DNA of 55,594 nucleotides from a virus (lineage: Duplodnaviria > Caudoviricetes), in IMG/VR virus record IMGVR_UViG_3300006863_000002, positions 1 to 55,594 of that record. One strand, given 5' to 3'. A program made the translations under genes and the position numbers. Shown in pieces: positions 4,725 through 55,594 of this stretch (the first letter of the stretch is position 1; each line of letters opens with the position of its first letter). The notes below the pieces were generated by a model that searched no databases, was not told the DNA's origin, and saw only the letters and a program-made list of their open reading frames with translations.

Positions 4725-5024
4725 ATGACCCTTTCCCAAATCTTCTCAAAGCTCAACGTCCTCAACGCTGAAGTCGCGCTTTGCCGTAACAACTACCGAT
4801 TCTCCGACGACTCGGAGCGGTGGGGCTGCTCGATCACGCTTGACCACGAAGGCACGGAGATCAAAGTCCGCGCCAATGCGGCGGACGGAGACGAGGCGCT
4901 CATCAACGCCTTCCGCAAACTTGACGACCTTCTCTCCGCTGGCCAAGTCGTGCGCGCCCTTAACCTTCCTCTTCTTTCCTCTCCCGTTGTGGACGAATCG
5001 ACGGTGCCGTTCAGTGCATCTTAA
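4725..5024 (+). CDS. Hypothetical protein
   Basis: AAGGAG RBS. Confidence 0.7.
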   Translation: MTLSQIFSKLNVLNAEVALCRNNYRFSDDSERWGCSITLDHEGTEIKVRANAADGDEALINAFRKLDDLLSAGQVVRALNLPLLSSPVVDESTVPFSAS

Positions 5025-8567: not shown

Positions 8568-8776
8568 CTGACGACCTTATCAAAGCTCTGCAAAAAGAAT
8601 TACGCGAAGCAGACGCCCGCATCGCTGAACTTGAAAATCTCCTCAAACCTTTTGCTCGCTTAAACGCAAATTGGTTTGGCGATAAAATGCCACTCCAACC
8701 CAAGCAAATCCTGTTCGAACCTCTGCCGGTCCTCTACGCTTCAAAATACTTTTCGGAGCAAAAACATGAAGATTGA
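8564..8776 (+). CDS. Ead/Ea22-like coiled-coil module protein
   Basis: MTDDLI...RIAELENLLKPFA. Confidence 0.65.
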   Translation: MTDDLIKALQKELREADARIAELENLLKPFARLNANWFGDKMPLQPKQILFEPLPVLYASKYFSEQKHED

Positions 8777-9149
8777 AAAGGTCTGCCGATACGTGCCGAT
8801 TGTGCAAGGAGTCAAAAGCAACGGCGCGCAAGCGGGCAGCACGATGCGGCAAATGCTTCTTTCCATCCCGCGAGTGCGCTTTCTTGAAGGAGGCGACAAT
8901 GACTTTTACGACAAATTCAAATCACCCGACGAGGACCCTGCAATCGAGAGCCCGTCCTACACGACGGCATGGTGCAACGCGGTCAAAACGCTGCCTATCA
9001 CCGACCGGGAACTTATCGTGGAGCGCATGATTAACGACGGATCGACGCAACAACAGGTCGCAGATCATCTTGGTATTCTGCGCGGGTCTGTGGCAAACTT
9101 AATTAACCGCGTTCGCGTAAAACGCGCTTACCAGTCTCTCAAAAAATAA
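8766..9149 (+). CDS. HTH protein (sigma region 4 / LuxR-like C-terminus)
   Basis: ITDRELIVERMINDGSTQQQVADHLGILRGSVANLINR. Confidence 0.7.
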   Translation: MKIEKVCRYVPIVQGVKSNGAQAGSTMRQMLLSIPRVRFLEGGDNDFYDKFKSPDEDPAIESPSYTTAWCNAVKTLPITDRELIVERMINDGSTQQQVADHLGILRGSVANLINRVRVKRAYQSLKK

Positions 9150-9159
9150 CAGGTGCCTC

Positions 9160-9516
9160 ATGGATCACACCAACACCTATCCCGACCTCGTGAATGTCGA
9201 GGACTGGCTCAATGCTTCCGGTTATACTGGCGAAGCTGGAGCGTGTCATCAGGCGATGAGTTTAATTCGCAAGCAGGAGAAGCGCATCGCGGAGTTGGAA
9301 GCAGCGCTGGACAATGTTCTTACCGGCGGAAACCACCTTGCGTTACTTATAGGTTCTGACCACCCGTTGCATACGGCTTCGCATGAAGAAGCGATGGCTC
9401 ATTATGGCGCTGGCGACCAATACGAAATTTGGTGCTGCTGGCGCACGATGATGAATGCAGGGCCAGTTCTCGCCGCCCGCGCCGCTTATCTGGGAGATAA
9501 GAATGATAGTATCTAA
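9160..9516 (+). CDS. Ead/Ea22-like module protein
   Basis: RIAELEAAL...AARAAYLGDK. Confidence 0.7.
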   Translation: MDHTNTYPDLVNVEDWLNASGYTGEAGACHQAMSLIRKQEKRIAELEAALDNVLTGGNHLALLIGSDHPLHTASHEEAMAHYGAGDQYEIWCCWRTMMNAGPVLAARAAYLGDKNDSI

Positions 9517-9883
9517 AGACGAGTTGAAGTGGACGGTGAACTACCAAGCCGCCCGTATTGCGGAGTTGTCCGAAGCAATCGGCCTTTTGACAACGCTGAA
9601 ACCTGACATGGAAATTGACGCTAATAACCCAGTTAGCATGGCGACACAAATTGTGGCGCATGTAGACGCCCGCTTCAAAGAGTTAAAAGCAGCGCTTCGT
9701 CCGTTCGCAGAACACATTGCTGAAGCAGAATGGGAACAATACAACGACAACACGCGGGTTGCTGTGCGTCTTGCCGACCTTCGCGCTGCCCGCGCCGCCC
9801 TGCAAAATAAAGAAGCTGACTACGTTTGGGATGGCGATAAATGGGTATATGCGCCGTGGAATAAGGGGGAGGAAAATGGATAA
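9503..9883 (+). CDS. Ead/Ea22-like module protein
   Basis: RIAELSE...LKAALRPFA...DLRAARAAL. Confidence 0.7.
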   Translation: MIVSKDELKWTVNYQAARIAELSEAIGLLTTLKPDMEIDANNPVSMATQIVAHVDARFKELKAALRPFAEHIAEAEWEQYNDNTRVAVRLADLRAARAALQNKEADYVWDGDKWVYAPWNKGEENG

Positions 9884-10049
9884 CGAGCAATATTTAGACT
9901 TGATGGCGTCTGTAGCCTTACAAGGTCTTTTAGCTGGCCCTGAAACGTCCGGTCTTGGTTGGGATAATATTGCCGAGTGCGCTTACTATATGGCTGACAA
10001 AATGTGGGAAGAACGCGAGAAACGCCGTGCCGCTTTGGAGAAGAAATAA
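9876..10049 (+). CDS. Small phage protein
   Basis: ALQGLLA...AYYMADKM motif; GGAGG RBS. Confidence 0.7.
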   Translation: MDNEQYLDLMASVALQGLLAGPETSGLGWDNIAECAYYMADKMWEEREKRRAALEKK

Positions 10050-10198
10050 TGCTCTACATAATGTCGTTTTTGTTTGCCGTAGCTGGTGCCATAGATGGTC
10101 ATTATAGAGGAGTTGATGCGATTTCAACTAACGCCGACTTCATCATTGGCGCTATTTTCTATTCAACTGCTTGCATCGTGGAGGAATTAGAGAAATGA
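10049..10198 (+). CDS. Small membrane protein
   Basis: TAATG coupling; two hydrophobic segments. Confidence 0.5.
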   Translation: MLYIMSFLFAVAGAIDGHYRGVDAISTNADFIIGAIFYSTACIVEELEK

Positions 10199-10500
10199 CT
10201 GACGACCTAATCGCACGGCTGCGCAACTACACTGGCGACTATACTGGCGACTATGTTGCGGGCTTACGCCTAGAAGAAGCCGCCGACGCATTAGAAGCGA
10301 GAGGAAAACGGATTGACGAACTGGAAAGTCGGCTAATCGACAAAGAAGCCCAAATCGCTGAACTTGAAGCGGTGCTGAAACCGTTTGCTAAACACGCGGT
10401 ATGGGTAGCGGATCATAGAAATGATGATGAGGCTTGGGAGTTAAAAGTCCGCGTTCGCGACCTCCGCGCCGCCCGCGCCGTTTTAGGAGAGAAGGAATGA
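10195..10500 (+). CDS. Ead/Ea22-like module protein
   Basis: MTDDLIARLR...EAADALE...IAELEAVLKPFA...DLRAARAVLGEKE. Confidence 0.7.
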   Translation: MTDDLIARLRNYTGDYTGDYVAGLRLEEAADALEARGKRIDELESRLIDKEAQIAELEAVLKPFAKHAVWVADHRNDDEAWELKVRVRDLRAARAVLGEKE

Positions 10501-10802
10501 ATGACGATTTAATCGCACGGCTGCGCAAATACAGCAAAAGACTGTTGCCATGCACACATGAAGCCGCCGACGCATTAAAGGCGCAGGCGCGACGGATTGC
10601 GGAGTTAGAAGCGCGTCTCAATTACATTGAAAACTATATTGAAGGACGCATACGCGGACATATCGCCATCGCAGATGAAGCTGGAACAAGCGCATCAGGA
10701 AAGAAACAGCGTGTTCGGGCGTCAGAGGCATCAGAGATATTAGGAATTATCCGCAAGGAAAATGCCTTGGCTAAGGGAGGTAAAAATGTCGCTATTTCCT
10801 GA
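10497..10802 (+). CDS. Ead/Ea22-like module protein
   Basis: MNDDLIARLR...EAADALK...RIAELEARL. Confidence 0.7.
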   Translation: MNDDLIARLRKYSKRLLPCTHEAADALKAQARRIAELEARLNYIENYIEGRIRGHIAIADEAGTSASGKKQRVRASEASEILGIIRKENALAKGGKNVAIS

Positions 10803-10932
10803 ATATGTCTCACCAATGTTTGCCACCCTAAAAGAGACAAGCCTGCAAAGCGTAAAGATTGCAAAAGAAAATGAGAATTTACGCGCCGCATTGCGCAGAC
10901 GCCGTCACCCGAATGGCGACAGCCGTCATTGA
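10786..10932 (+). pseudogene. Short ORF probably truncated by the WYL insertion
   Basis: GGGAGG RBS; MSLFPEY...ENENLRAALR followed by a short unrelated tail. Confidence 0.4.
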
Positions 10933-10956
10933 GCCTTTCTTTACCCTAACTGGAAA

Positions 10957-10981
10957 AACCAATCAACTTTTTTGATTGGTT
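10957..10981. promoter_or_regulatory. Putative WYL-repressor operator (perfect 10-5-10 inverted repeat)
   Basis: AACCAATCAA-CTTTT-TTGATTGGTT, 33 bp upstream of the WYL ATG. Confidence 0.7.
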
Positions 10982-11014
10982 GCCGCAAAACACATAAAAA
11001 AGTAGGATAGAGAC

Positions 11015-11938
11015 ATGGCCGACGAGACAGTAGAATCACTCAAGTGGAGCGTTAGGCAACGCCTTGAGTTCATTGACTTTCGACTGTTTTGGGAGGGCCG
11101 AGTGAGCCGCCCGGACATCGCGAAGGTCTTCGGGATTTCGGTCCAGCAGGCGTCGGGCGACGTGCAGCTCTATCAGCAGCTTGCCCCGGGCAACATGGAT
11201 TATGACGTCGCGCTGAAACGCTACATACGGCTTCCGTCGTTCGAACCGGTCTTCATAATCAACAGCGCCGATCGGCAACTGCTCAGAATGGTCGCGCTCA
11301 AGAATGGTTGGATGAGCAAGGATGAGACGTGGTTCGACGGCCTGCCGCCGTACGAGGTCGTGTCGCTGCCGAGACGCACGACCGATCCGTTGATTTTGCT
11401 CGCCGTGCTGGACGCGATCCGCCTCAAACAGGAGATCGAGGTCGAGTATCAGTCGATGACCGGGACGCCGCATGGCGTAAGAAAGATCGCTCCACACGCC
11501 CTCTCACACAGTGCAGGCCGCTGGTACATCCGAGCATGGTCTCGCGACCACAACGACTTCCGCGACTATCAGCTAAGCCGCATCAAAAGAATTCTGAGTT
11601 CAAACGAGGTTAATATCGACCTGTCGTTGGACTACGAGTGGAATCACTTGATAGATCTTGTCATAGCGCCAAATCCTGCACTAAGTCCCGCAAAGCAGGA
11701 AGCCGTTGCAGCCGAATATAACATGATAGACAACGAACTAATCATGCCAATTCGGCTAAGCTTAGCATTTTATCTTATCAACGAGCACAATCTGGACGTG
11801 GAACCGGGCAAACTTGAACCGGAGAAGCAGCAAATTGTTCTGACGAACAAGGAGCAGGTCAAACAAGCCAAAGATACTACGAGAGAGATGGCGCGACAGG
11901 CCCTTGCGCGCGCGCAACGCTCGAACAGCCAGCCATGA
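11015..11938 (+). CDS. WYL-domain transcriptional regulator, CapW/BrxR-like (wHTH-WYL-WCX)
   Basis: RQRLEFIDFRLFWEGRVSRPDIAKVFGISVQQAS wHTH; YQSM...IAPHAL...RWYIRAW...FRDYQLSRI WYL; LVIAPNPALS...EYNM WCX. Confidence 0.9.
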   Translation: MADETVESLKWSVRQRLEFIDFRLFWEGRVSRPDIAKVFGISVQQASGDVQLYQQLAPGNMDYDVALKRYIRLPSFEPVFIINSADRQLLRMVALKNGWMSKDETWFDGLPPYEVVSLPRRTTDPLILLAVLDAIRLKQEIEVEYQSMTGTPHGVRKIAPHALSHSAGRWYIRAWSRDHNDFRDYQLSRIKRILSSNEVNIDLSLDYEWNHLIDLVIAPNPALSPAKQEAVAAEYNMIDNELIMPIRLSLAFYLINEHNLDVEPGKLEPEKQQIVLTNKEQVKQAKDTTREMARQALARAQRSNSQP

Positions 11939-12054
11939 CGATCTCGTCTCTGGTCTTGTTCGGTAGCAGAGCGCGGGAAGATAACGACTTACGCAACTGT
12001 CAAAGATTACTTGACGGTTCCCGCGCCGCCCGCTCCGCTTTGGAGAAGGAATGA
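11935..12054 (+). pseudogene. Chimeric remnant: nucleotidyltransferase N-terminus fused to a phage module tail
   Basis: ATGA-coupled 39-aa ORF MTISSLVLFGSRAREDNDLRNCQRLLDGSRAARSALEKE; LFGSRAR is the Pol-beta/MNT GS motif. Confidence 0.6.
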
Positions 12055-12207
12055 TTATCGTGGCGCATGTGTGGTGCCGTTGGGGGCTAACGGCCATTAA
12101 GCAATCTCGTTGCACGAGAGATTGTTCAATGAATTGACCTACTGCACATCGTAACTCGACCCTTGCGGGCCACGACCTCCGCGCCGCTTTGCAAAAAGGA
12201 GAGTGAA

Positions 12208-12387
12208 ATGTCATGGGTTCTAATCATCTGGTTCGCCGGTGCAAGCAGCGCCGTCACAACGCACGAGTTTCTTTCTCAAGAAGCCTGCGAAAATGCGGGA
12301 AAAACTGTGAGCGCAAAAGCGGGTCTAGGATATAAGATCGACTACGCCTGTGTTCCAAAGGAGTTGTTCCATGGCCTTCGACCCTAA
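12208..12387 (+). CDS. Small phage protein (WVLII...F...ACE..G...CVPK)
   Basis: AGGAG RBS; recurrent small phage protein pattern. Confidence 0.65.
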   Translation: MSWVLIIWFAGASSAVTTHEFLSQEACENAGKTVSAKAGLGYKIDYACVPKELFHGLRP

Positions 12388-12913
12388 AGAATGGCGAGAA
12401 GCTAATCGAGAAAAGCAAAGACTGTATTCCGCGCGGTATCGTCTCCGCAAAAAGGGGTGCGATCTTCCGCCGGAAATTCAAGCAGAACTTGAGGAACTTA
12501 AGGCAAAAAAGAAGGCTGAGAGTTTGGAGCGTCTGCGTGAAGCAAAGCGCCGCTGGAACCGTGAACATAAAGAAGAGCGAGCCGCCCGTCGTAGGGAGAA
12601 ATACAACAGTGATCCAGAATGGCGCGCACATAAACTTGCGATTGCGAAAGCTAATCGTGACAAACACAGAGTCGTTCTTACTGAAGAACAAAAAGCAAAG
12701 CGACTTCAGCAAAAACGCGAAGCACAAGTCAAAGCAACTCGAGCGTCAGCTGCAAAGGCCGCACAGCGTCGTGCGGAAATGGGGCCACCCCCAGACGCGA
12801 AGCGTCCTGCACCCAAGCCCAATGTTTTAACGGACGCCCAAAAGGCAGCGCCGAAGTGGAAACTCAAAAAGCCCGGAAGGCTGATCGCGCTTTGCGGCTG
12901 GAATGGATGGTAG
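12371..12913 (+). CDS. Highly basic helical protein
   Basis: AGGAG RBS; K/R/E-rich, repeated W/Y-R-E-x-N-R-E-type units. Confidence 0.7.
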   Translation: MAFDPKEWREANREKQRLYSARYRLRKKGCDLPPEIQAELEELKAKKKAESLERLREAKRRWNREHKEERAARRREKYNSDPEWRAHKLAIAKANRDKHRVVLTEEQKAKRLQQKREAQVKATRASAAKAAQRRAEMGPPPDAKRPAPKPNVLTDAQKAAPKWKLKKPGRLIALCGWNGW

Positions 12914-12996
12914 CGCGGCACAACCATAAGGTTAGGACCCTCGGCTATTGCGTATCGTGTGGCCCTAACTTTTTCGCCCAGCGAGCGACTTTTTCG

Positions 12997-13025
12997 TTGC
13001 AATGGGTCAAAGGTGATGGCATTGT
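12997..13025 (+). promoter_or_regulatory. Putative sigma70-type promoter of the replication operon
   Basis: TTGCAA-17 nt-CATTGT in the intergenic gap. Confidence 0.35.
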
Positions 13026-13085
13026 TTTTAGGCAAGGGGGCGAATGCCCTTTAATTGGCGCAACGCGCCCTCTAAGGAACCGATC

Positions 13086-13571
13086 ATGTCAAAACGAGCT
13101 TTGAAGCTGCCGCACAACGTCACAGTCCACGTCGATCAGCCCTATGCTGAAGGTCATAAGCTGACCGCCCTTGAGGCCGAAAAGCTGAACCACGTTCTTG
13201 CGGACAATATTCGCACTTCGATCATTGCCAAGCTGAAGCGTCTCGCGGACGAAGGCACCATCGACTCTGAGGCTGCGTCGGCTGAGTTCCAGGCTTTTGC
13301 GGATGCTTACGAATTTTCTTCGCGCACTCCGAAAGCGTCTGCCGATCCGATTGCGAAAGAGGCGACGAAGATTGCCAAGGAGCAGGTTTTCGCTGCTATC
13401 CGCCGCAAGGGCGGAAATCCCTCGGACTATTCCGCAGAGCAGATCGCGGAGTATGTCGGCAAGGTGCTGCAGCATAAGCCGGAAATCCGTGAGGAAGCTG
13501 CTCGCCGCATCGACTCGTCCCGTAAGATGGCTGGCGATTTGCTGTCCGATCTTTTCGACGAGGCTGCCTAA
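13086..13571 (+). CDS. Hypothetical helical protein, possibly abundant DNA-binding
   Basis: AAGGA RBS; strong codon bias; ends DLLSDLFDEAA. Confidence 0.75.
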   Translation: MSKRALKLPHNVTVHVDQPYAEGHKLTALEAEKLNHVLADNIRTSIIAKLKRLADEGTIDSEAASAEFQAFADAYEFSSRTPKASADPIAKEATKIAKEQVFAAIRRKGGNPSDYSAEQIAEYVGKVLQHKPEIREEAARRIDSSRKMAGDLLSDLFDEAA

Positions 13572-13580
13572 TGCCATTCG

Positions 13581-13721
13581 GGCATCCCAGATGATACAAA
13601 CTCTGGGATGCCTGTCAGGAAAGCGGGGTTTTCGTTTCCTCCCTTCCCCGCTGTCCGTCAGCCAGACGATGGACCTCTGAAACTTCTGGCGAGCGGGGGG
13701 TCTGCCCCCGCTTTCTTTTTG
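13581..13721 (+). terminator. Multi-hairpin element ending in an intrinsic terminator (possible attenuator)
   Basis: Four successive stems; last is AGCGGGGG/CCCCCGCT plus TTCTTTTT. Confidence 0.6.
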
Positions 13722-13738
13722 CAAAGGCTGTCGCCGCG

Positions 13739-14032
13739 ATGAGTAAAGAAGCAGAAATCCTCTATGAAGCCTACCATTCGGAGTTTGGCATCGAGGTTGA
13801 GCTGCTTGGCAATTACCAAGTTTCTTTGCAGCGCCTTTACGCTGCGCGCAGAAAAGACCCTGATCTTGATATTCTACAAATCTCCCGATCCCCGACCTCC
13901 CCGACTCATATTTGGATATTGAAAACCGACAAACCCTCTCCGCAACCAAGCAGCACGGCTGCACCCTTGAAGGAAAACCCAAGAGGCGAAGGCCCGCTTT
14001 ACAGCCTAGCCGACTTATTAGGAGACGACTAG
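13739..14032 (+). CDS. Hypothetical protein
   Basis: ORF; ends SLADLLGDD. Confidence 0.7.
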   Translation: MSKEAEILYEAYHSEFGIEVELLGNYQVSLQRLYAARRKDPDLDILQISRSPTSPTHIWILKTDKPSPQPSSTAAPLKENPRGEGPLYSLADLLGDD

Positions 14033-14033
14033 A

Positions 14034-14258
14034 ATGGCCGCGCGCCTCGATGACGAAACGACAAAGGTGCATCTCCACCTTTATTCAAAAGACCTTGAAA
14101 AAATTGATCAGTATTTCTGCAGAGCAGGGCTTCGCACGGTCGGAAGATCAAAAGCGATAAGATTGATCGTTCACGCATACGTTCAGCATATGGAGCGGAA
14201 AGCTAATGCAAAACCAGTCCCCTTCGACCAATCCATCACAGACCTCATCGGAGAGTGA
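14034..14258 (+). CDS. Ribbon-helix-helix-like DNA-binding protein
   Basis: TKVHLHLYSKDLEKIDQYF...GRSKAIRLIV. Confidence 0.6.
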   Translation: MAARLDDETTKVHLHLYSKDLEKIDQYFCRAGLRTVGRSKAIRLIVHAYVQHMERKANAKPVPFDQSITDLIGE

Positions 14259-14487
14259 GACGCACGGCGATATTCTTGAAGAAGCGTCTCCCGCGAGTCT
14301 TGATGAATTAATAAACCGCTTTCCGCAGGTTTCAGACGCGGAGGCTGACCGGATTATTGATTATTTGAGGGCGCAACGGGAAAAGTTCGCGCAGCAAGAA
14401 GCGGCCCCGAAAGTCAAAAAAGCCCCGCGTAAAAAAGGCCCGATCATTTCCGCAGATGAACTTCTTTCCGATATTCTAGGTGACTGA
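14206..14487 (+). CDS. Hypothetical protein (start uncertain)
   Basis: IIDYLRAQREKF; ends ADELLSDILGD. Confidence 0.7.
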   Translation: MQNQSPSTNPSQTSSESETHGDILEEASPASLDELINRFPQVSDAEADRIIDYLRAQREKFAQQEAAPKVKKAPRKKGPIISADELLSDILGD

Positions 14488-14686
14488 TATGACGAAGGAC
14501 GAACTTGAGCAACTCGTGCAGGACATTCGGCAACAGGCGTCAACGTGGCTTGGAGATGAAGCAAGTGAAAAGATTGAGCGGTTAATCGCACATACCATGT
14601 TTCTTCGAGGGCACCACGACAATCTCCAGCAAATGCTGCTTAACGGTTATCGCATGGTCCAAGTAGGTTCTGATCCACGCAAATAG
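14480..14686 (+). CDS. Hypothetical protein
   Basis: Operon packing. Confidence 0.6.
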   Translation: MTDMTKDELEQLVQDIRQQASTWLGDEASEKIERLIAHTMFLRGHHDNLQQMLLNGYRMVQVGSDPRK

Positions 14687-14699
14687 ACAGGGACTCCCC

Positions 14700-15644
14700 A
14701 TGTCAGATCAAGTCAACAATTCCCTTTCACTTACATCCCCGCGTTTTCAATTTGCGTGGGACTCGACCTCCATCGGAGCGTTCAAGACGTGTCCGCGCTA
14801 TTACCAACTCAGCATTTTGGAAGGATGGCAACCGAGAGAAATCTCCGTCCATCTTACATTCGGACTTCATTTTCACTCCGCGCTTGAGCGCTATGACCAT
14901 CTGCGGTTTGGCGGGATGGGATATGACGAGGCGCTGCGGGAAGTCGTGCGATATGTGTTGACAATCACTTGGGACGAGCGAAAAAATCGCCCTTGGATTT
15001 CAGATGACCCAAACAAAAACCGCATGACGCTTTTGCGGAGCGTGGTCTGGTATTTAGATCAGTTCAAAGATGATCCGATCGAAACGGTGCGGCTTGCGAA
15101 TGGCAAACCCGCTGTCGAACTTTCGTTCCGGTTTGACTCAGGATATTCGAGCAGCAAGGGCGAAAGCATTTTGTTGTGCGGGCATCTCGATCGCCTCGCC
15201 ACGCTCAACGACAAGGCGTTTGTGCTGGACCGCAAAACCACAAAGTCCACAATCAACCAGTCGTTTTTCGATAAGTTTACGCCTGATAATCAGATGTCGC
15301 TTTACGCGATTGCAGGTAAGATCGTTTACAACGTGCAGATCGAAGGGATCATTGTTGATGGCGCGCAGATCGCGCAGACCTTCACGCGCTTTTTGAGAGG
15401 CGTCGTGCCGAGGACTGAAAGTGGGCTCGAAGAATGGTATTACGATCTTGGGCAGTATATCGCAATGGCGGAATTGTTTGCGGCGCAAAACTACTGGCCG
15501 ATGAATGATAAGTCTTGCGGCATGTATGGCGGCTGTCCTTTCCGCAAAATCTGTGGCCTTCCGCCGACCGTTCGCCACGAATGGCTGCGCGCCGACTTCA
15601 CAAAGCGCATCTGGGACCCGCTCAAAGTTCGTGGTGACATATGA
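14700..15644 (+). CDS. PD-(D/E)XK nuclease, Cas4/RecB-like exonuclease
   Basis: CPRYY...FGLHFHSALE...GHLDRL...VLDRKTT...Q..LY...C....GCPFRKIC (four-Cys Fe-S pattern). Confidence 0.88.
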   Translation: MSDQVNNSLSLTSPRFQFAWDSTSIGAFKTCPRYYQLSILEGWQPREISVHLTFGLHFHSALERYDHLRFGGMGYDEALREVVRYVLTITWDERKNRPWISDDPNKNRMTLLRSVVWYLDQFKDDPIETVRLANGKPAVELSFRFDSGYSSSKGESILLCGHLDRLATLNDKAFVLDRKTTKSTINQSFFDKFTPDNQMSLYAIAGKIVYNVQIEGIIVDGAQIAQTFTRFLRGVVPRTESGLEEWYYDLGQYIAMAELFAAQNYWPMNDKSCGMYGGCPFRKICGLPPTVRHEWLRADFTKRIWDPLKVRGDI

Positions 15645-17254: not shown

Positions 17255-17315
17255 CAATAACGGGGGAGGCAGGAGCCTTTTGCCTCCCCCACCTTGCAAC
17301 TGACAGGAATTGAAA

Positions 17316-18752
17316 ATGGAAATCTCGCTTAATGCTATTTGGATCGACCGTGCAAGCCGTCAGCGCAAGGAGATCGTGATTGACGATTTGCTCGAAAGCA
17401 TTCCGAGACGCGGAGTTCTTGTGCCGATTATCGTCACGAGCGAGCAAGGCCCGAATGGCCAGCCTTTCAAACTAATCGCAGGCGAACGGCGTTACACGGC
17501 GTCGCGGCAGTTAAAACTTGAATCAATTCCCGCGCGCCTGCTGGACGATCTTTCGCCAACCGAGCAGCGGGTGGTTGAACTCGAAGAAAATCTTCGCCGG
17601 AAGGATTTGGGCTGGCAGGACCAGTGTTTGGCGATGGCGAGCGTGCATGAAATTTTGTCGCAAGCTGGCGGCCCGGACTGGGGCTATAACAATACGGCGG
17701 AAAATCTTGGGTTCAGCCCTTCGTGGGTGAATAGGTGCTGCCGGATCGCCAAGGAACTCCATCGAGATAACGTGCGGCACATGGAGTCTGCGACGCGGGC
17801 TTACAATTTTCTAACTCGTGAGGATGAACGGGTCGCGTCGGACGCCATAAGCAACCTATTGCATACGGCCACGGCGGCGGCTTCTGAGGCGATTGAAAGT
17901 GCGTCGGGTGGTAACCCCCTAGACGACCTTTTGAACGCATCCACGGCCCCGGAAAAGGGCGGCACGGGGGCATCCACAACCGCATTTCAATCCGCACGCC
18001 AAGCACCCCTCATAACACCCGCCGACCAGTCTATTCTCCATCAATCTTTTCTTGACTGGGCTCCAACTTACACCGGCGAACCGTTCAACCTTATCCACTG
18101 CGACTTTCCTTACGGCGTGAATGTTTTCGGTGGAGCGTGGTCTGGGAAACTTACAACTCCGGGGTATAACGACTCCCCAGACATTTATACCGACCTGATT
18201 AAATGTCTGTGTGAAAATCTCGATCGCGTGATGGCGCACTCCGGGCATTTGGTTTTCTGGCTTTCCGGCGACATCAAAATTCAGGCCCGGACGCTCCAGA
18301 TGTTTGCGGAACTTGCGCCGACGCTGGCGTTCAACAACTTCCCGCTCGTCTGGCTGAAAAGCGACAACGTGGGAATTGTGCCGGACCCGAAACGCGAACC
18401 TAGACGCATTTACGAAACCGCGCTGATTGCAAGTCGTGAGGATCGTTTGCTGGTTCGCCCCGTGGCCAACGCAATCGCAGCGCAAACGAACAAGGAGCAT
18501 CACCCCCACACCAAACCTGAACCAGTGCTAAAGCACTTTCTGCAGATGTTTGTGGATAGCAACACAAGATTTCTCGATCCGACATGCGGTGGTGGGTCAT
18601 CGCTGCGGGCCGCAGAAGCCCTCGGGGCAGAGTATGTGCTCGGCCTTGAGATTGACGATGAATACGTAACAAACGCGAGACGAGCCCTCACTCAGTCGCG
18701 TGTGATGCGGAAAGCATCGGCGTTAAAAAAGGAGCAAGCGAATGACGGATGA
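17316..18752 (+). CDS. ParB-N domain / N6-N4 DNA methyltransferase fusion
   Basis: GVLVPIIV...LIAGERRY...ELEENLRRKDL (ParB); IHCDFPYG, HPHTKP, FLDPTCGGGS, GLEID (beta-class MTase). Confidence 0.88.
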   Translation: MEISLNAIWIDRASRQRKEIVIDDLLESIPRRGVLVPIIVTSEQGPNGQPFKLIAGERRYTASRQLKLESIPARLLDDLSPTEQRVVELEENLRRKDLGWQDQCLAMASVHEILSQAGGPDWGYNNTAENLGFSPSWVNRCCRIAKELHRDNVRHMESATRAYNFLTREDERVASDAISNLLHTATAAASEAIESASGGNPLDDLLNASTAPEKGGTGASTTAFQSARQAPLITPADQSILHQSFLDWAPTYTGEPFNLIHCDFPYGVNVFGGAWSGKLTTPGYNDSPDIYTDLIKCLCENLDRVMAHSGHLVFWLSGDIKIQARTLQMFAELAPTLAFNNFPLVWLKSDNVGIVPDPKREPRRIYETALIASREDRLLVRPVANAIAAQTNKEHHPHTKPEPVLKHFLQMFVDSNTRFLDPTCGGGSSLRAAEALGAEYVLGLEIDDEYVTNARRALTQSRVMRKASALKKEQANDG

Positions 18753-19398: not shown

Positions 19399-20454
19399 AT
19401 GCACAACGCAGCGCCAGCATTCGCCCACGCAAGCGGACCACGAGACGCCAAAATCGCAATCGTGGGAGAAGCGTGGGGCGAGCAGGAAGCACTCATCGGG
19501 AAGCCGTTTCAAGGTTACAGCGGGCAAGAACTTACCCGCATGTTGCAAGAAGCTGGGTTGTCTCGTCGTGATTGCTTTTTGACAAACGTGCTGGCGCTGC
19601 GCCCACCAAACAATGATCTGCAAGCCTTGTGCGTCAAGAAAGCAGAATGCGGAGAGGATTATCCCCATCCGCATCTTGGCAAGGTCGGGCAATACCTGGC
19701 CCCTCAATACCTGTCAGAATTGGAGCGTTTGCGAAATGAATTGGAAATCGTGCGCCCTAATCTCACTATCGCTCTGGGTGCTACAGCTTGCTGGGCTTTG
19801 CTTGGCACTAACGGCATTGGAAGTTTACGCGGGACAGTGGCGACAGGAACTCTTGCTGGCGGCAAAGTCCTACCGACCTACCACCCTTCGGCAGTCTTAC
19901 GTAATTGGGCGTGGCGTCCAATCGCTCTCGCGGATTTGATTAAAGCGAAACGTGAAAGCGCATACCCAGAGATCAAACGACCGCGCCGCTACATTCTGGT
20001 GAACCCTACGATTGCGGAATGCCATGACTGGATCGCCAAGCATATACGCGCCGAAACCGCTTGTGACATCGAAACGAAATACGGCATGATCGAGATGGTG
20101 GGGTTCAGCGCGGACGCGGAAAACGCAATGGTCGTTCCGTTCTGGGACAAAGCGAAAGGTGGAAATTATTGGCCATCCCCTCGCATAGAGCGTGACGCAC
20201 GAAATGTTGTGCGTTCGATTCTGGAAAACCCCAACATCGTGAAAATATTCCAGAACGGGCTTTATGACTTGCAATATCTAATGAAAGAAGGTTATCGTCC
20301 TCGTTCGTGCCTTCAAGATACCATGCTCTATCACCATGCCCTTTATCCAGAAATGCAAAAGGGGCTGGGCTTTTTAGGCAGCATCTATACTTCCGAGCCT
20401 GCGTGGAAAACCATGCGCGGGAAAAAGATCACGGAGATGAAGAAGGATGACTGA
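19399..20454 (+). CDS. Family-4 uracil-DNA glycosylase fused to the N-terminal part of a PolA 3'-5' exonuclease
   Basis: IVGEAWG..E...GKPFQGYSG, TYHPSAVLR (UDG); CDIET (ExoI), QNGLYD (ExoII), DTML. Confidence 0.88.
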   Translation: MHNAAPAFAHASGPRDAKIAIVGEAWGEQEALIGKPFQGYSGQELTRMLQEAGLSRRDCFLTNVLALRPPNNDLQALCVKKAECGEDYPHPHLGKVGQYLAPQYLSELERLRNELEIVRPNLTIALGATACWALLGTNGIGSLRGTVATGTLAGGKVLPTYHPSAVLRNWAWRPIALADLIKAKRESAYPEIKRPRRYILVNPTIAECHDWIAKHIRAETACDIETKYGMIEMVGFSADAENAMVVPFWDKAKGGNYWPSPRIERDARNVVRSILENPNIVKIFQNGLYDLQYLMKEGYRPRSCLQDTMLYHHALYPEMQKGLGFLGSIYTSEPAWKTMRGKKITEMKKDD

Positions 20455-20676: not shown

Positions 20677-20789
20677 TGCTTTCACCCCTCATCCTCTCGT
20701 TTGTGCCTTTCACATATTACATCGTGACTGGTTCCGAAAAAGCCCTCGCCGTTTGGGTGCTGTTTGTCGCTTGCGGAATGGTGATTTAA
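20676..20789 (+). CDS. Small hydrophobic peptide (37 aa)
   Basis: TAATG-coupled at both ends. Confidence 0.45.
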   Translation: MLSPLILSFVPFTYYIVTGSEKALAVWVLFVACGMVI

Positions 20790-22270
20790 TGCCGATCATT
20801 GACACCAGCACTCTTCAAGAAGGCATTGTGCTCGCGGAGAACGAGCAAATCTATAACGGCCTTGATTGCTGCATCACACATGAAGTTTTAGACTCCATCC
20901 GCGCTATAGGCCCTGCGCCAAAAATCTACGATTTCGCCCGTGCGCTCCAGGCTCCGGTTCTGGACATGATGCAGAGGGGGTTTCGCATTGATACTTATGA
21001 GCGCCAGAAAGGTATTGAGACGCTTAATGCGGAGATCGACCGGCTTACTACTCTGCTTAATCGTCTTAGCTACGCTGTTTGGGACAAACCCCTTAAAGCA
21101 AACTCTCCTAAAATGCTTCAAGAGTTTTTCTTTGGAGTGATGCGTATTCCAGAAATCTGGACTTCAAAAAAGGGAGAGCGAAAACTTTCGATGGACCGCG
21201 AGGCCCTTGAAAAACTCGACAACTATTTTCACGCCAGACCATTTGTTTCGACCATCTTGGCTATTCGAGATGCTGTCAAACAACTTTCAGTTTTAAACAC
21301 CGAAGTCGATTCTGACGGACGCATGAGGACATCTTACAATGTCGCAGGAACAGAAACCGGACGCTTTTCTTCCAGCACTAATGCCTTCGGCACCGGAACA
21401 AACTTACAAAACATCACGTCAAGTTTACGCAAAATGTTTGTGGCTGACCCTGGCTACAAAATTTGCGGCATCGACCTCGAACAAGCAGAGTCTAGAGAAG
21501 TTGGATGGCTTTCGGGCACCATTTGTGGTGACTGGTCTTATCTGGATGCCTGCTATAGTGGCGACCTTCACACTCTTGTCGCAAGGACTGCTTGGCCCGA
21601 ATTGGAATGGACAGACGATCCAAAGCGCGATCGTGCAATCGCAGACACGCCCTTTTACCGTCACCTTACCTACAGAGACATGGCGAAAAAACTCGGCCAC
21701 GGAAGCAATTATCGCGGATTACCTCCAACCATGGCCCGTCATGCCAAGCTCCCAGTCGAAGTCGCAGAGTCTTTTCAGCGAAGATATTTCGAAAGATTTG
21801 CTGGAATACCAAAATGGCATAGATGGGTCGCACAACAGCTTCAAACGGCAAACAGAGTCATCACGCCTTTCGGACGCGAGCGGACGTTCTTCGGAAGAGC
21901 GAACGATGATACGACGCTACGGGAAGCGATTGCGTTTTCACCGCAGAGCGCGACGGCGGATAGATTGAATTTAGTGTTGTGGAGAGTTTGGAAATACATG
22001 CCGCAGGTTCAGTTGATCGCGCAAGTTCACGACGCCCTTTACTTTCAATATCCCGAACACCTCGACGAAGTTGCTGTTATTGACGAAGCCCTTTCACATT
22101 TTCACCTCGCGTTTGAGTGCAACGGCCATGAACTCGTGGTGCCGGGAGAAGCCAAGGTTGGCTGGAATTGGGGAAACTTCGACCCCGCCGCTAACCCTGA
22201 CGGTCTGGCGAAATGGAAAAACAAAAAGGACGAGCGCAAACGCACTCCTCTCCTTTCGCAAAAACTATAA
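20789..22270 (+). CDS. polA: Family A DNA polymerase (ExoIII plus polymerase domain)
   Basis: YNGLDC (ExoIII), TETGRFSS, NLQNI, DLEQAESR (A), RDMAKKLGHGSNY (B), QVHDAL (C). Confidence 0.93.
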   Translation: MPIIDTSTLQEGIVLAENEQIYNGLDCCITHEVLDSIRAIGPAPKIYDFARALQAPVLDMMQRGFRIDTYERQKGIETLNAEIDRLTTLLNRLSYAVWDKPLKANSPKMLQEFFFGVMRIPEIWTSKKGERKLSMDREALEKLDNYFHARPFVSTILAIRDAVKQLSVLNTEVDSDGRMRTSYNVAGTETGRFSSSTNAFGTGTNLQNITSSLRKMFVADPGYKICGIDLEQAESREVGWLSGTICGDWSYLDACYSGDLHTLVARTAWPELEWTDDPKRDRAIADTPFYRHLTYRDMAKKLGHGSNYRGLPPTMARHAKLPVEVAESFQRRYFERFAGIPKWHRWVAQQLQTANRVITPFGRERTFFGRANDDTTLREAIAFSPQSATADRLNLVLWRVWKYMPQVQLIAQVHDALYFQYPEHLDEVAVIDEALSHFHLAFECNGHELVVPGEAKVGWNWGNFDPAANPDGLAKWKNKKDERKRTPLLSQKL

Positions 22271-49629: not shown

Positions 49630-50100
49630 TCATAGCGGGGTCCGCTCCATCCAGTGCAGGATCGGGATGATCTTTTGCCTTTCCGCCCTCTCCATCGCCC
49701 CTTTCAACGTGGTCTCCACCAGCGTCAGGTCCGGCGTTTTGCTTAAATGCCTCGCCGCCACGATCCCCAGCGGCTTTTTATCCGGCCAAACCATCTCCGC
49801 GATCGGAAAATACAAGTCTCTAAGCTGATTTTGGCCCTGTTCAACCTCTGTCAGCTTACATTCGATCAACACAACCCGCTTCGATCCCACAATAATAAGG
49901 TCCATCTGGCAATGCCCTGGACCATTCATATCCTGAAATTCAAACCATTGCCCGTGTTCCGCACGCGGGATCGCCGCCGACAGCGCCTTTTCATAGCGCA
50001 ATCCTGCCGCTTTCGCCCCCTTCGGCCTGCTTCTCGGGATATGTGCGGGGCGCAGACACATCGCTGCATACTGCAACCCCACAATCGAGCGGTATGACAT
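49630..50100 (-). CDS. PD-(D/E)XK nuclease (resolvase-like)
   Basis: GLRYEK...QMDLIIV...LIECKLT...QL. Confidence 0.7.
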   Translation of the reverse strand: MSYRSIVGLQYAAMCLRPAHIPRSRPKGAKAAGLRYEKALSAAIPRAEHGQWFEFQDMNGPGHCQMDLIIVGSKRVVLIECKLTEVEQGQNQLRDLYFPIAEMVWPDKKPLGIVAARHLSKTPDLTLVETTLKGAMERAERQKIIPILHWMERTPL

Positions 50101-55448: not shown

Positions 55449-55594
55449 ACCTTGTCAAATGGTCCTTAAATGGTTCTAACCTTAGGCCCCCCAGATACTG
55501 ACTCTCTAATGTGCTTAACCTCAAATCCACTTTTCCCCCTTTCTGGGGGTGACACGTTTAGTCTAGTATTTTTATATATTATATATACCTACTC

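Follow-up and report, generated by a model that had tools for sequence, protein, structure and literature searches.

CapW and its relatives are dimeric repressors that sit on a palindrome over the promoter of a defence operon and are released when their WYL domain binds single-stranded DNA (ssDNA), as set out in the accessible parts of two papers (PMC9122588, PMC11662680). The published CapW sites are palindromes of 19–24 bp in a shared promoter (accessible part of PMC9122588). The study of how WYL repressors control defence systems is still young, and the literature searched treats these repressors as tools of the host, with no description of a virulent phage carrying one. Here, such a repressor gene was analyzed in the virus record IMGVR_UViG_3300006863_000002 (Duplodnaviria; Caudoviricetes); the whole stretch of 55,594 bp is referred to as the window, and all positions are given on it. 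The gene, capW (11015–11938, + strand, ATG start), was assigned by homology and domain searches and encodes an intact repressor of 307 amino acids (aa) with three domains, winged helix-turn-helix (wHTH), WYL and WCX. An earlier interpretation made from the letters alone (the sequence-only reading) had taken it for an orphan CapW/BrxR-like repressor in an apparently lytic phage. The analysis bears this out: the repressor is genuine, intact and orphaned, it is carried by an apparently virulent phage, and it derives from a bacterial defence-regulator locus. Proteins of this kind are known; what is new is the setting, in which the gene is seen shortly after being captured.

The captured block and its repressor

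Residues 5–300 of the phage protein aligned with residues 4–296 of CapW from Rhizobium leguminosarum (Rl; 9c5g) at an E-value of 2.9e-61 (phmmer against the PDB). The structures of Pseudomonas (Pa; 7tb5) and Stenotrophomonas (Sm; 7tb6) CapW followed at about 1e-46 to 4e-47, and those of BrxR at 1e-34 (7qfz) and 7e-33 (7t8k). Pfam placed a WYL domain at residues 128–193 (E 1.3e-15); beyond it, the local scan returned just two weak HTH matches and none to the WCX model, and the WCX assignment is therefore drawn from the full-length alignment to the solved structures. A search of NCBIfam gave no match, the PADLOC matches were CRISPR-associated WYL models, and the PHROGs match was a family of unknown function. 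In a large protein database, the protein itself is precomputed as PF26109+PF13280+PF26107, as are all of the best 120 among its 624 relatives. An identical protein is recorded there on 8 contigs, the closest non-self proteins (P0003–P0008) are 63–77% identical, and the best relatives from a metagenome scan reach at most 58%. When shorter homologues were searched for, 10 short proteins were found, apparently fragments on short contigs. Judged by these homologies, the phage protein is a bona fide CapW/BrxR-family wHTH-WYL-WCX repressor; like the solved dimers, it presumably forms a domain-swapped homodimer.

The residues known to contact DNA are kept as well. In Sm CapW, R32, S42, Q45 and S47 are required for DNA binding (accessible part of PMC9122588), and all four are present in the phage protein, with the same numbering in an ungapped alignment to 7tb6. 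The ssDNA pocket of Rl CapW is made up of S144, R164, R168 and R184, within an RWHVR motif (accessible part of PMC11662680). Its phage counterparts, mapped by hand from the 9c5g alignment (one constant offset fits all four Rl residues), are S147, R169, R173 and R189, and the motif reads RWYIR. Across a 24-member family alignment, no variation was seen at R32, S42, Q45, S47, R169, W170 and R173, and almost none at S147 and R189. The sequence-only reading had envisaged a loss of inducibility and non-inducible heterodimers with the host protein. With all four ssDNA-contact residues and the RW(H/Y)(V/I)R motif kept, and with a protein near-identical to that of the donor (see below), mixed dimers would be wild-type and a non-inducible variant is unsupported; by its sequence, the encoded protein is essentially wild-type CapW.

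Upstream of the gene, a repeat search revealed a candidate CapW operator, AACCAATCAACTTTTTTGATTGGTT (10957–10981), a perfect inverted repeat of 25 bp with 10-nt arms and a 5-nt spacer, 58 to 34 nt before the capW ATG, which agrees with the published CapW sites. Allowing up to 3 mismatches, the window contains this palindrome a single time, 0 of 100 shuffles matched it, and by our own estimate ∼0.0016 such inverted repeats are expected by chance in 132 nt. Its half-site occurs at chance frequency (4 found versus 3.0 expected). Homologous bacterial loci carry palindromes of other sequence at the same distance from the capW ATG. At the locus of the closest sequenced homologue (genome G154, genus of G001; 80% identity), which belongs to a cyclic oligonucleotide-based antiphage signalling system (CBASS), the inner core of the palindrome is conserved and the outer arms differ. 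A promoter scan gave no convincing capW promoter.

Operator and gene are parts of a block of 1,107 bp of bacterial, non-phage origin (10883–11989, + strand), which comprises the intergenic, bidirectional promoter region with the operator, capW and the first 18 codons of a partner gene. Most of this length (10936–11988), reaching from 79 nt before the ATG to 53 nt after the stop codon, could be aligned by blastn with the G154 locus (1,059 nt, 76.5%). The partner fragment is the beginning of a 39-codon open reading frame (ORF; 11935–12054, + strand) that overlaps the capW stop codon in an ATGA, an arrangement also found in several bacterial loci. Codons 1–18 are the remnant of a HalB-like nucleotidyltransferase; the codons after them are unrelated to it, the last ones being the tail of a small phage ORF. 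The first 20 residues matched positions 1–20 of a profile hidden Markov model (HMM) of the partner family with 14.4 bits (E 0.0014), the best of 1,281 six-frame pieces, compared with 6.8 bits for the best piece of a shuffled control (5x sets). The stub is 73% identical over 26 aa to the downstream partner in G154, and it diverges and stops ahead of the catalytic Asp-x-Asp motif of the family; the intact HalB-like gene behind capW is thus missing in the phage. NCBIfam, including its HalB model NF051895, gave no match for the 39-aa product. Homology to related phages resumes at 12025–12047 (+ strand), the 3′ end of the small phage ORF (blastn to 4909–4931 of the related-phage locus L179, 95.7% over 23 nt), which brackets the right junction to 11989–12025. 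A megablast of 9000–14000 returned only a 140-nt match.

Related phages lack the block. Via the conserved 175-aa protein encoded at 13044–13571, 36 related-phage loci were fetched, all of which share the gene order from 13044 to 15644. None of the 36 contains capW (tblastn, E ≤ 1e-4); 18 of them were assessable, meaning that they extend at least 2,200 nt upstream. In the two closest relatives, with several flanking genes at 85–93% protein identity, the homologues of 10434–10802 and 12163–12387 lie ∼366 nt apart, compared with 1,361 nt in this phage. Comparison of these sequences shows that the block was inserted into a variable early stretch, where it has the sense orientation.

Donor-type sequences and bacterial relatives

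Public metagenome runs were searched for the inserted region. At least part of 10300–12700 is contained in the 24 runs listed, none of them an RNA run; four (X2, X5, X6 and X7) were compared over 9500–13500. Two soil runs from different studies, X5 (2024) and X7 (2020), contain near-identical pieces solely within 10883–11989, and their contigs depart into unlike sequence exactly at 10883 and 11989. Their identity to the phage is 99.7–99.8% (X7, 2 differences in 889 bases; main X5 variant, 3 in about 1,016), with 0–2 differences per contig piece within the block. After 11989, the soil contigs continue in the frame of the stub into the conserved Ser-Asp-x-Asp-Leu-Leu catalytic motif missing in the phage; by this continuation, the donor-type contigs carry the intact partner gene. 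One soil contig (X5 record 5) spans the operator and is identical there, the nearest difference being at 10955, 2 nt upstream. The coding differences placed between phage and soil contigs are V6A, I81M and T277K, none of which is at a known functional position. That X5 and X7 do not cover the phage flanks, and that X6 has no contig bridging a junction, proves nothing; the loose ends and the pieces themselves were relied on.

Because the identity to these non-phage contigs is 99.7–99.8%, the sequences show that the capture by a complete, apparently virulent phage is very recent. Transfer from bacterium to phage is the more economical direction in view of the truncated neighbour gene in the phage, the lack of the block in its relatives, and the canonical defence contexts of all sequenced relatives. 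Most simply, the cassette came from a bacterium that is, or resembles, the host, and the donor itself may be a mobile element. Two observations that had initially been considered were dropped in view of the soil contigs. The phage palindrome had seemed improved over the imperfect one of G154, and X5 record 5 has the same palindrome. The ratio of nonsynonymous to synonymous changes (dN/dS) against G154, 0.087, had been taken as purifying selection in the phage; at 99.7–99.8% identity to the soil contigs, this value describes the bacterial family, not the phage branch. X5 also contains a second, more divergent capW variant within 11715–11939 (6 differences in a piece of 83 nt and 12 in one of 172 nt), and several related cassettes coexist in that sample.

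Four freshwater runs, which may be the source sample or belong to one campaign, hold 100% of the sampled words of 10300–12700; roughly a third of them is present in another freshwater run and in the two soil runs. In X2, possibly the source, an independent Logan contig of 10,317 nt runs across 9500–13500 with 0 differences. The junctions, for which the sequence-only reading had named support from further reads as desirable, are thus reproduced by an independent assembly, albeit one from a run that may be the source sample. In X6, a freshwater run with another sample and study code, identical small pieces were found on both flanks and inside capW at a depth of 2.0–3.2, which fits the same phage at low abundance.

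The bacterial relatives were examined at 80 loci with 39–59% identity; the capW ORF was called in 77, and the neighbours were clustered, with one representative per cluster annotated. A defence operon adjoins capW in 65 of the 77. The gene is divergent to CBASS-type genes (CD-NTase, patatin effector, Cap2 E1-E2) in 42, one of which also has a Pycsar cyclase, to a Pycsar cyclase alone in 5, and in 18 to an operon with an E2-E1-JAB fusion; the remaining 12 have no cluster of these kinds beside it. In G154, capW is located between a divergent operon (CD-NTase, a 151-aa protein, patatin) and an intact HalB-like gene of 229 aa on the same strand. As far as the nearest homologues and their operons tell, the donor was therefore a bacterial defence-regulator locus, as the sequence-only reading would have it. 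The wHTH residues 13–70 of G154 CapW are those of the phage protein except for V38L. Between the two genes, synonymous differences per site amount to 0.37 in the wHTH part versus 0.81–0.83 in the WYL and WCX parts, an unevenness that hints at a mosaic (recombinant) history of capW or at strong nucleotide-level constraint at its 5′ end. Of 401 genomes from the order to which G001 belongs, 171 matched the operator pattern with no more than 2 mismatches. None of the matches listed (506 more were counted beyond these) is exact, and those listed in G001 and G151, where the position of capW is known, lie away from it. This frequency is roughly the chance expectation of about one match per genome and is uninformative. 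A reversed control pattern of the same composition matched clearly fewer genomes than the operator pattern did.

Directly downstream of capW, a HalB-like gene was found in 74 of 78 assessable genome loci and in 58 of 69 assessable metagenome loci; the loci without it mostly contain the most distant capW copies. The partner is a nucleotidyltransferase of ∼227 aa. A profile of 19 such downstream genes matched solved Hailong HalB over the full length (9dbh, 9dbj and 9dbi; E 3e-59 to 2e-56). The NCBIfam HalB equivalog was matched end to end at 174–190.2 bits, where the cut-off is 190: the G154 protein passes with 190.2, and four are just under. A HalB-named cluster is also among the nearest neighbours of the partner in a protein atlas. 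HalA, the Hailong effector, was not found above the cut-off in the 6 genomes tested. According to a review, HalB synthesizes protein-primed poly-dA (accessible part of PMC13434031), and HalB is also treated in the accessible part of PMC13275509. The combination of an ssDNA-sensing repressor with an ssDNA-synthase homologue at more than 130 loci suggests a regulatory circuit not yet described within the literature searched, which contained no paper treating Hailong HalB together with WYL or CapW. As a caveat for such a circuit, E. coli CapW bound poly-T, poly-C and poly-G, while binding to poly-A was undetectable, as far as the accessible part of PMC11662680 goes.

The phage genome and the possible roles of its CapW

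The virus record was rated 100% complete by CheckV. An exact 17-nt direct repeat at 1–17 and 55578–55594 fits a circularly closed assembly, though linear is the class given for this record. Searched in six frames over its whole length, it gave 0 matches at E ≤ 1 to the tyrosine integrase (PF00589), resolvase (PF00239), large serine recombinase (PF07508) and S24 peptidase (PF00717) families, with 14 named control genomes searched alongside, and no lysogeny gene was found in a Pfam scan of 30 ORFs. The lack of a lysogeny module noted from the letters alone thus holds within these searches, and the phage is apparently virulent, although it may carry unusual lysogeny genes. The same Pfam scan identified a UvrD-type helicase, a PD-(D/E)XK nuclease, an AAA_24 ATPase and a DUF3987 protein, as well as a P22-type coat protein, portal and large terminase, a tail-collar protein and a pectate-lyase-like protein. 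It also revealed a ParB-N/DNA methylase fusion (17310–18752), a uracil-DNA glycosylase-family domain fused to a 3′-5′ exonuclease (19399–20454), a separate family A polymerase domain (20753–22270), a weak NERD-domain match (49630–50100) and, in a small protein (8676–9149), a weak match to sigma-70 region 4. PF13876, which we take to be the Acb2 family, had no match in a six-frame search of the phage genome, a search that did not cover other anti-CBASS families.

Co-oriented with the + strand block 200–23496, capW sits between the gene with the sigma-70 region 4 match and the replication and recombination genes, in the stretch that varies among related phages, and its placement in an early accessory region was thus correctly read. 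At 9160–10802 there is a series of small coiled-coil-like ORFs that resemble one another and have recurring endings (...IAELEA... and ...RAARAAL..KE); their number and sequence differ among related phages. One such ORF lost its front to the captured block, and its remaining tail lies within 12025–12054. The earlier observation that no defence genes follow downstream also stands for the ORFs scanned, with the 18-codon HalB-like remnant at the capW stop codon as a nuance: no defence operon adjoins capW among them, and the flanking genes are phage genes common to the relatives.

What the gene does for the phage is a matter of probabilities. The explanation we tentatively lean towards, while granting it somewhat less than an even chance, is trans-repression of a host defence operon. 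The donor would be the host of the phage or a close relative (as a first guess, the host may belong to Alphaproteobacteria of the methanotroph type), and capW would be transcribed early, from its own promoter and by read-through from the upstream early genes on the same strand; read-through would let it escape its own negative autoregulation. The extra repressor, supplied without the HalB-like partner, would then occupy the identical operator of a capW-defence locus in the host, most likely one controlling a CBASS-type operon. Added CapW would raise the ssDNA signal needed for derepression and damp the infection-triggered induction of defence, to the benefit of the phage or of sibling phages in later infections. 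As there is a single operator in the phage, CapW would there give autoregulation and nothing else, and a matching host locus would be the only place of effect. A more specific form of this idea seems possible but is held with greater reserve: repressor piracy, in which the ssDNA-gated CapW of the host is expressed early, deliberately without the HalB-like synthase, and locks a CBASS-type operon, perhaps in sensor-less form in phages like Sonora (see below). The absence of the HalB-like partner may be meaningful or accidental.

That the phage repressor silences host operons with the same operator, as the sequence-only reading had proposed, appears feasible at the level of sequence: a donor-type contig has the identical 25-bp palindrome, and capW differs at 2–3 positions in about 900–1,000 bases. 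The benefit that was implied does not follow from these matches. Placement on the early-gene strand, in a variable stretch, argues for trans-repression. So does the content of the block, as a random 1.1-kb piece of a multi-megabase genome rarely holds a complete gene plus its control region, let alone a defence repressor. A benefit is also favoured by the diverged stand-alone CapW wHTH in the lytic phage Sonora, an independent parallel, and by the finding that induction mattered for blocking prophage induction (accessible part of PMC11662680). In Vibrio, a restricted infection is followed by WYL-mediated derepression, through which cells are primed against a later attack (accessible part of bioRxiv 10.1101/2025.11.13.688357), and a phage-borne repressor could blunt such priming.

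Several points weigh against trans-repression. The breakpoints ignore gene boundaries, and the useless partner stub left behind looks accidental. With CapW mutants locked in repression, E. coli was as well protected from lytic lambda as with the wild type, at least in the accessible part of PMC9122588, so that basal CBASS can suffice and repression after entry may be too late. With its ssDNA pocket intact, the phage CapW should itself be released by the ssDNA of an infection, and negative autoregulation would buffer gene dosage unless there is read-through. Owing to the recency of the capture, an intact ORF and a perfect palindrome count as inherited features and say nothing about selection in the phage. 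The donor-type contigs are shown for only ∼30 nt past each end of the block, and the sole contig spanning both junctions stems from a run that is possibly the source sample.

Nearly as likely as trans-repression is that the block is a neutral or slightly harmful passenger, pasted as ∼1.1 kb of host DNA into a dispensable, variable stretch by illegitimate recombination and due to be lost; this, too, is possible rather than probable. Given the near-identity to non-phage contigs, selection has had hardly any time to act; at the breakpoints, the partner is truncated behind codon 18 and a small phage ORF is overlapped; and none of the 18 assessable related phages carries capW. The three placed coding differences all change the residue, as neutrality predicts, although n = 3. 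On the other hand, the block contains a single complete gene, which comes together with its control region, lies in sense orientation and encodes a defence repressor; a phage with a P22-like portal and large terminase is generally expected to tolerate little junk. The variant is present at 100% of words in four freshwater runs, possibly of one campaign, and as low-depth pieces in a fifth, and the diverged wHTH in Sonora indicates that such modules can persist in lytic phages. The lambda result, in which constitutive repression did not weaken CBASS (accessible part of PMC9122588), again speaks for a passenger.

The remaining explanations appear improbable. Abundant phage CapW might absorb the ssDNA inducer or form mixed dimers and thereby blunt ssDNA-sensing regulators generally, for which the intact pocket, the near-identity to the donor protein (mixed dimers are expected) and the loss of the HalB-like partner, a candidate source of ssDNA, could be invoked. 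Yet mixed dimers of near-identical subunits would behave as the wild type, no residue change suggests altered inducibility, and E. coli CapW binds ssDNA with micromolar affinities only (7–13 µM; accessible part of PMC11662680), which would make it a poor sponge amid replicating phage DNA. We give equally little credence to a regulatory switch of the phage's own, in which CapW would sense the ssDNA of replication and time downstream phage genes from its own promoter. The gene does head a same-strand run into the recombination and replication module, and by homology the repressor is ssDNA-responsive (accessible part of PMC11662680). Nevertheless, the operator occurs once in 55.6 kb at up to 3 mismatches with its half-site at the chance level, the downstream genes are conserved in 36 related-phage loci without capW, and the capture is too recent for a rewired circuit. 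The suggestion that the protein times phage gene expression, made by the sequence-only reading as an alternative, is thus disfavoured. That an assembler stitched the block into the phage contig is very improbable indeed, even though a near-identical block exists outside the phage and all runs with the complete stretch may go back to the source sample or to a single campaign. Phage sequence is in the right order on both sides of the block, the X2 contig reproduces the region without a difference, four runs hold all sampled words, the flank and capW pieces of X6 have a similar low depth, and the identical protein is on 8 contigs.

The phage capW is not yet to be called an anti-defence gene. If it works in trans, it would represent a new layer of counter-defence, in which the operon is silenced rather than its products attacked. 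Operator, repressor and donor locus match almost base for base, which makes for an unusually clean test system. It would also bear on whether induction of CBASS-type operons matters in lytic infection, as only then would a phage gain from blocking it. If the block is a mere passenger, it is a rare snapshot of capture from a host by a virulent phage, with both breakpoints and near-identical donor sequence at hand.

Comparison with known systems

Other relatives on viral contigs are of a different kind. No relatives were found when viral contigs were scanned with the phage protein as a single query, and a profile scan identified 41 contigs encoding relatives at 33–50% identity, with the ORF called in 38. 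The next gene on the same strand encodes at least 570 aa in 25 of 30 assessable loci, and a HalB-like neighbour is present in 0 of 33. Nine of these large proteins, from seven loci, matched HmaA, TmtA, HKD-Snf2, a type I restriction enzyme, DrmA, type IIG and GajB/UvrD-like helicases, one of the nine having only a weak type III restriction-enzyme match. Many of the 41 WYL regulators are located close to the end of their contig, a position expected of defence islands within or next to prophages. The viral-contig copies are probably BrxR-type regulators that travel with defence cargo in prophage-like records. BrxR itself (7qfz, 7t8k) belongs to the same family as the phage CapW, but the BrxR-type copies on viral contigs carry cargo, whereas the phage CapW is an orphan of a different clade.

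Among deposited phages, tblastn returned only two Acinetobacter phage MD-2021a contigs (30%) and the Stenotrophomonas phage Sonora (Mesyanzhinovviridae; MZ326860.1, L215). In the latter, CPT_Sonora_088 (2498–2725), a 75-aa “hypothetical protein” encoded inside a tightly packed gene row, is a stand-alone wHTH of the CapW type (E 5e-15 to Pa CapW and 4e-13 to Sm CapW). Like the phage CapW, it keeps the DNA-contact Arg and the Ser..Gln.Ser positions; unlike the full-length phage protein, it consists of the wHTH only, without linker, WYL and WCX. Its similarity to the solved CapW proteins is moderate, and it does not look like a fresh capture from their close relatives. It may be a sensor-less operator binder, and Stenotrophomonas is where CapW has been characterized.

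The solved CapW proteins (9c5g, 7tb6, 7tb5) share domains, contact residues and an upstream palindrome with the phage protein, but the known capW genes lie beside a CBASS operon, whereas the phage gene has no defence operon and its HalB-like neighbour is cut to 18 codons. The known anti-CBASS proteins, the nuclease Acb1 and the signal sponge Acb2, act on the cyclic-nucleotide signal once it is made. The role proposed for the phage CapW has the same end, escape from CBASS, but CapW would act on transcription and, if this is true, would represent an anti-CBASS strategy distinct from those signal nucleases and sponges. The closest precedent in concept is a phage-encoded H-NS, proposed to silence the CRISPR-Cas system of the host (accessible part of PMC3097231), which embodies the same idea of a phage copy of a host silencer of defence genes. 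However, H-NS is a general nucleoid silencer, whereas CapW would be dedicated to a single operon and gated by a ligand, and its operator has a match in the donor.

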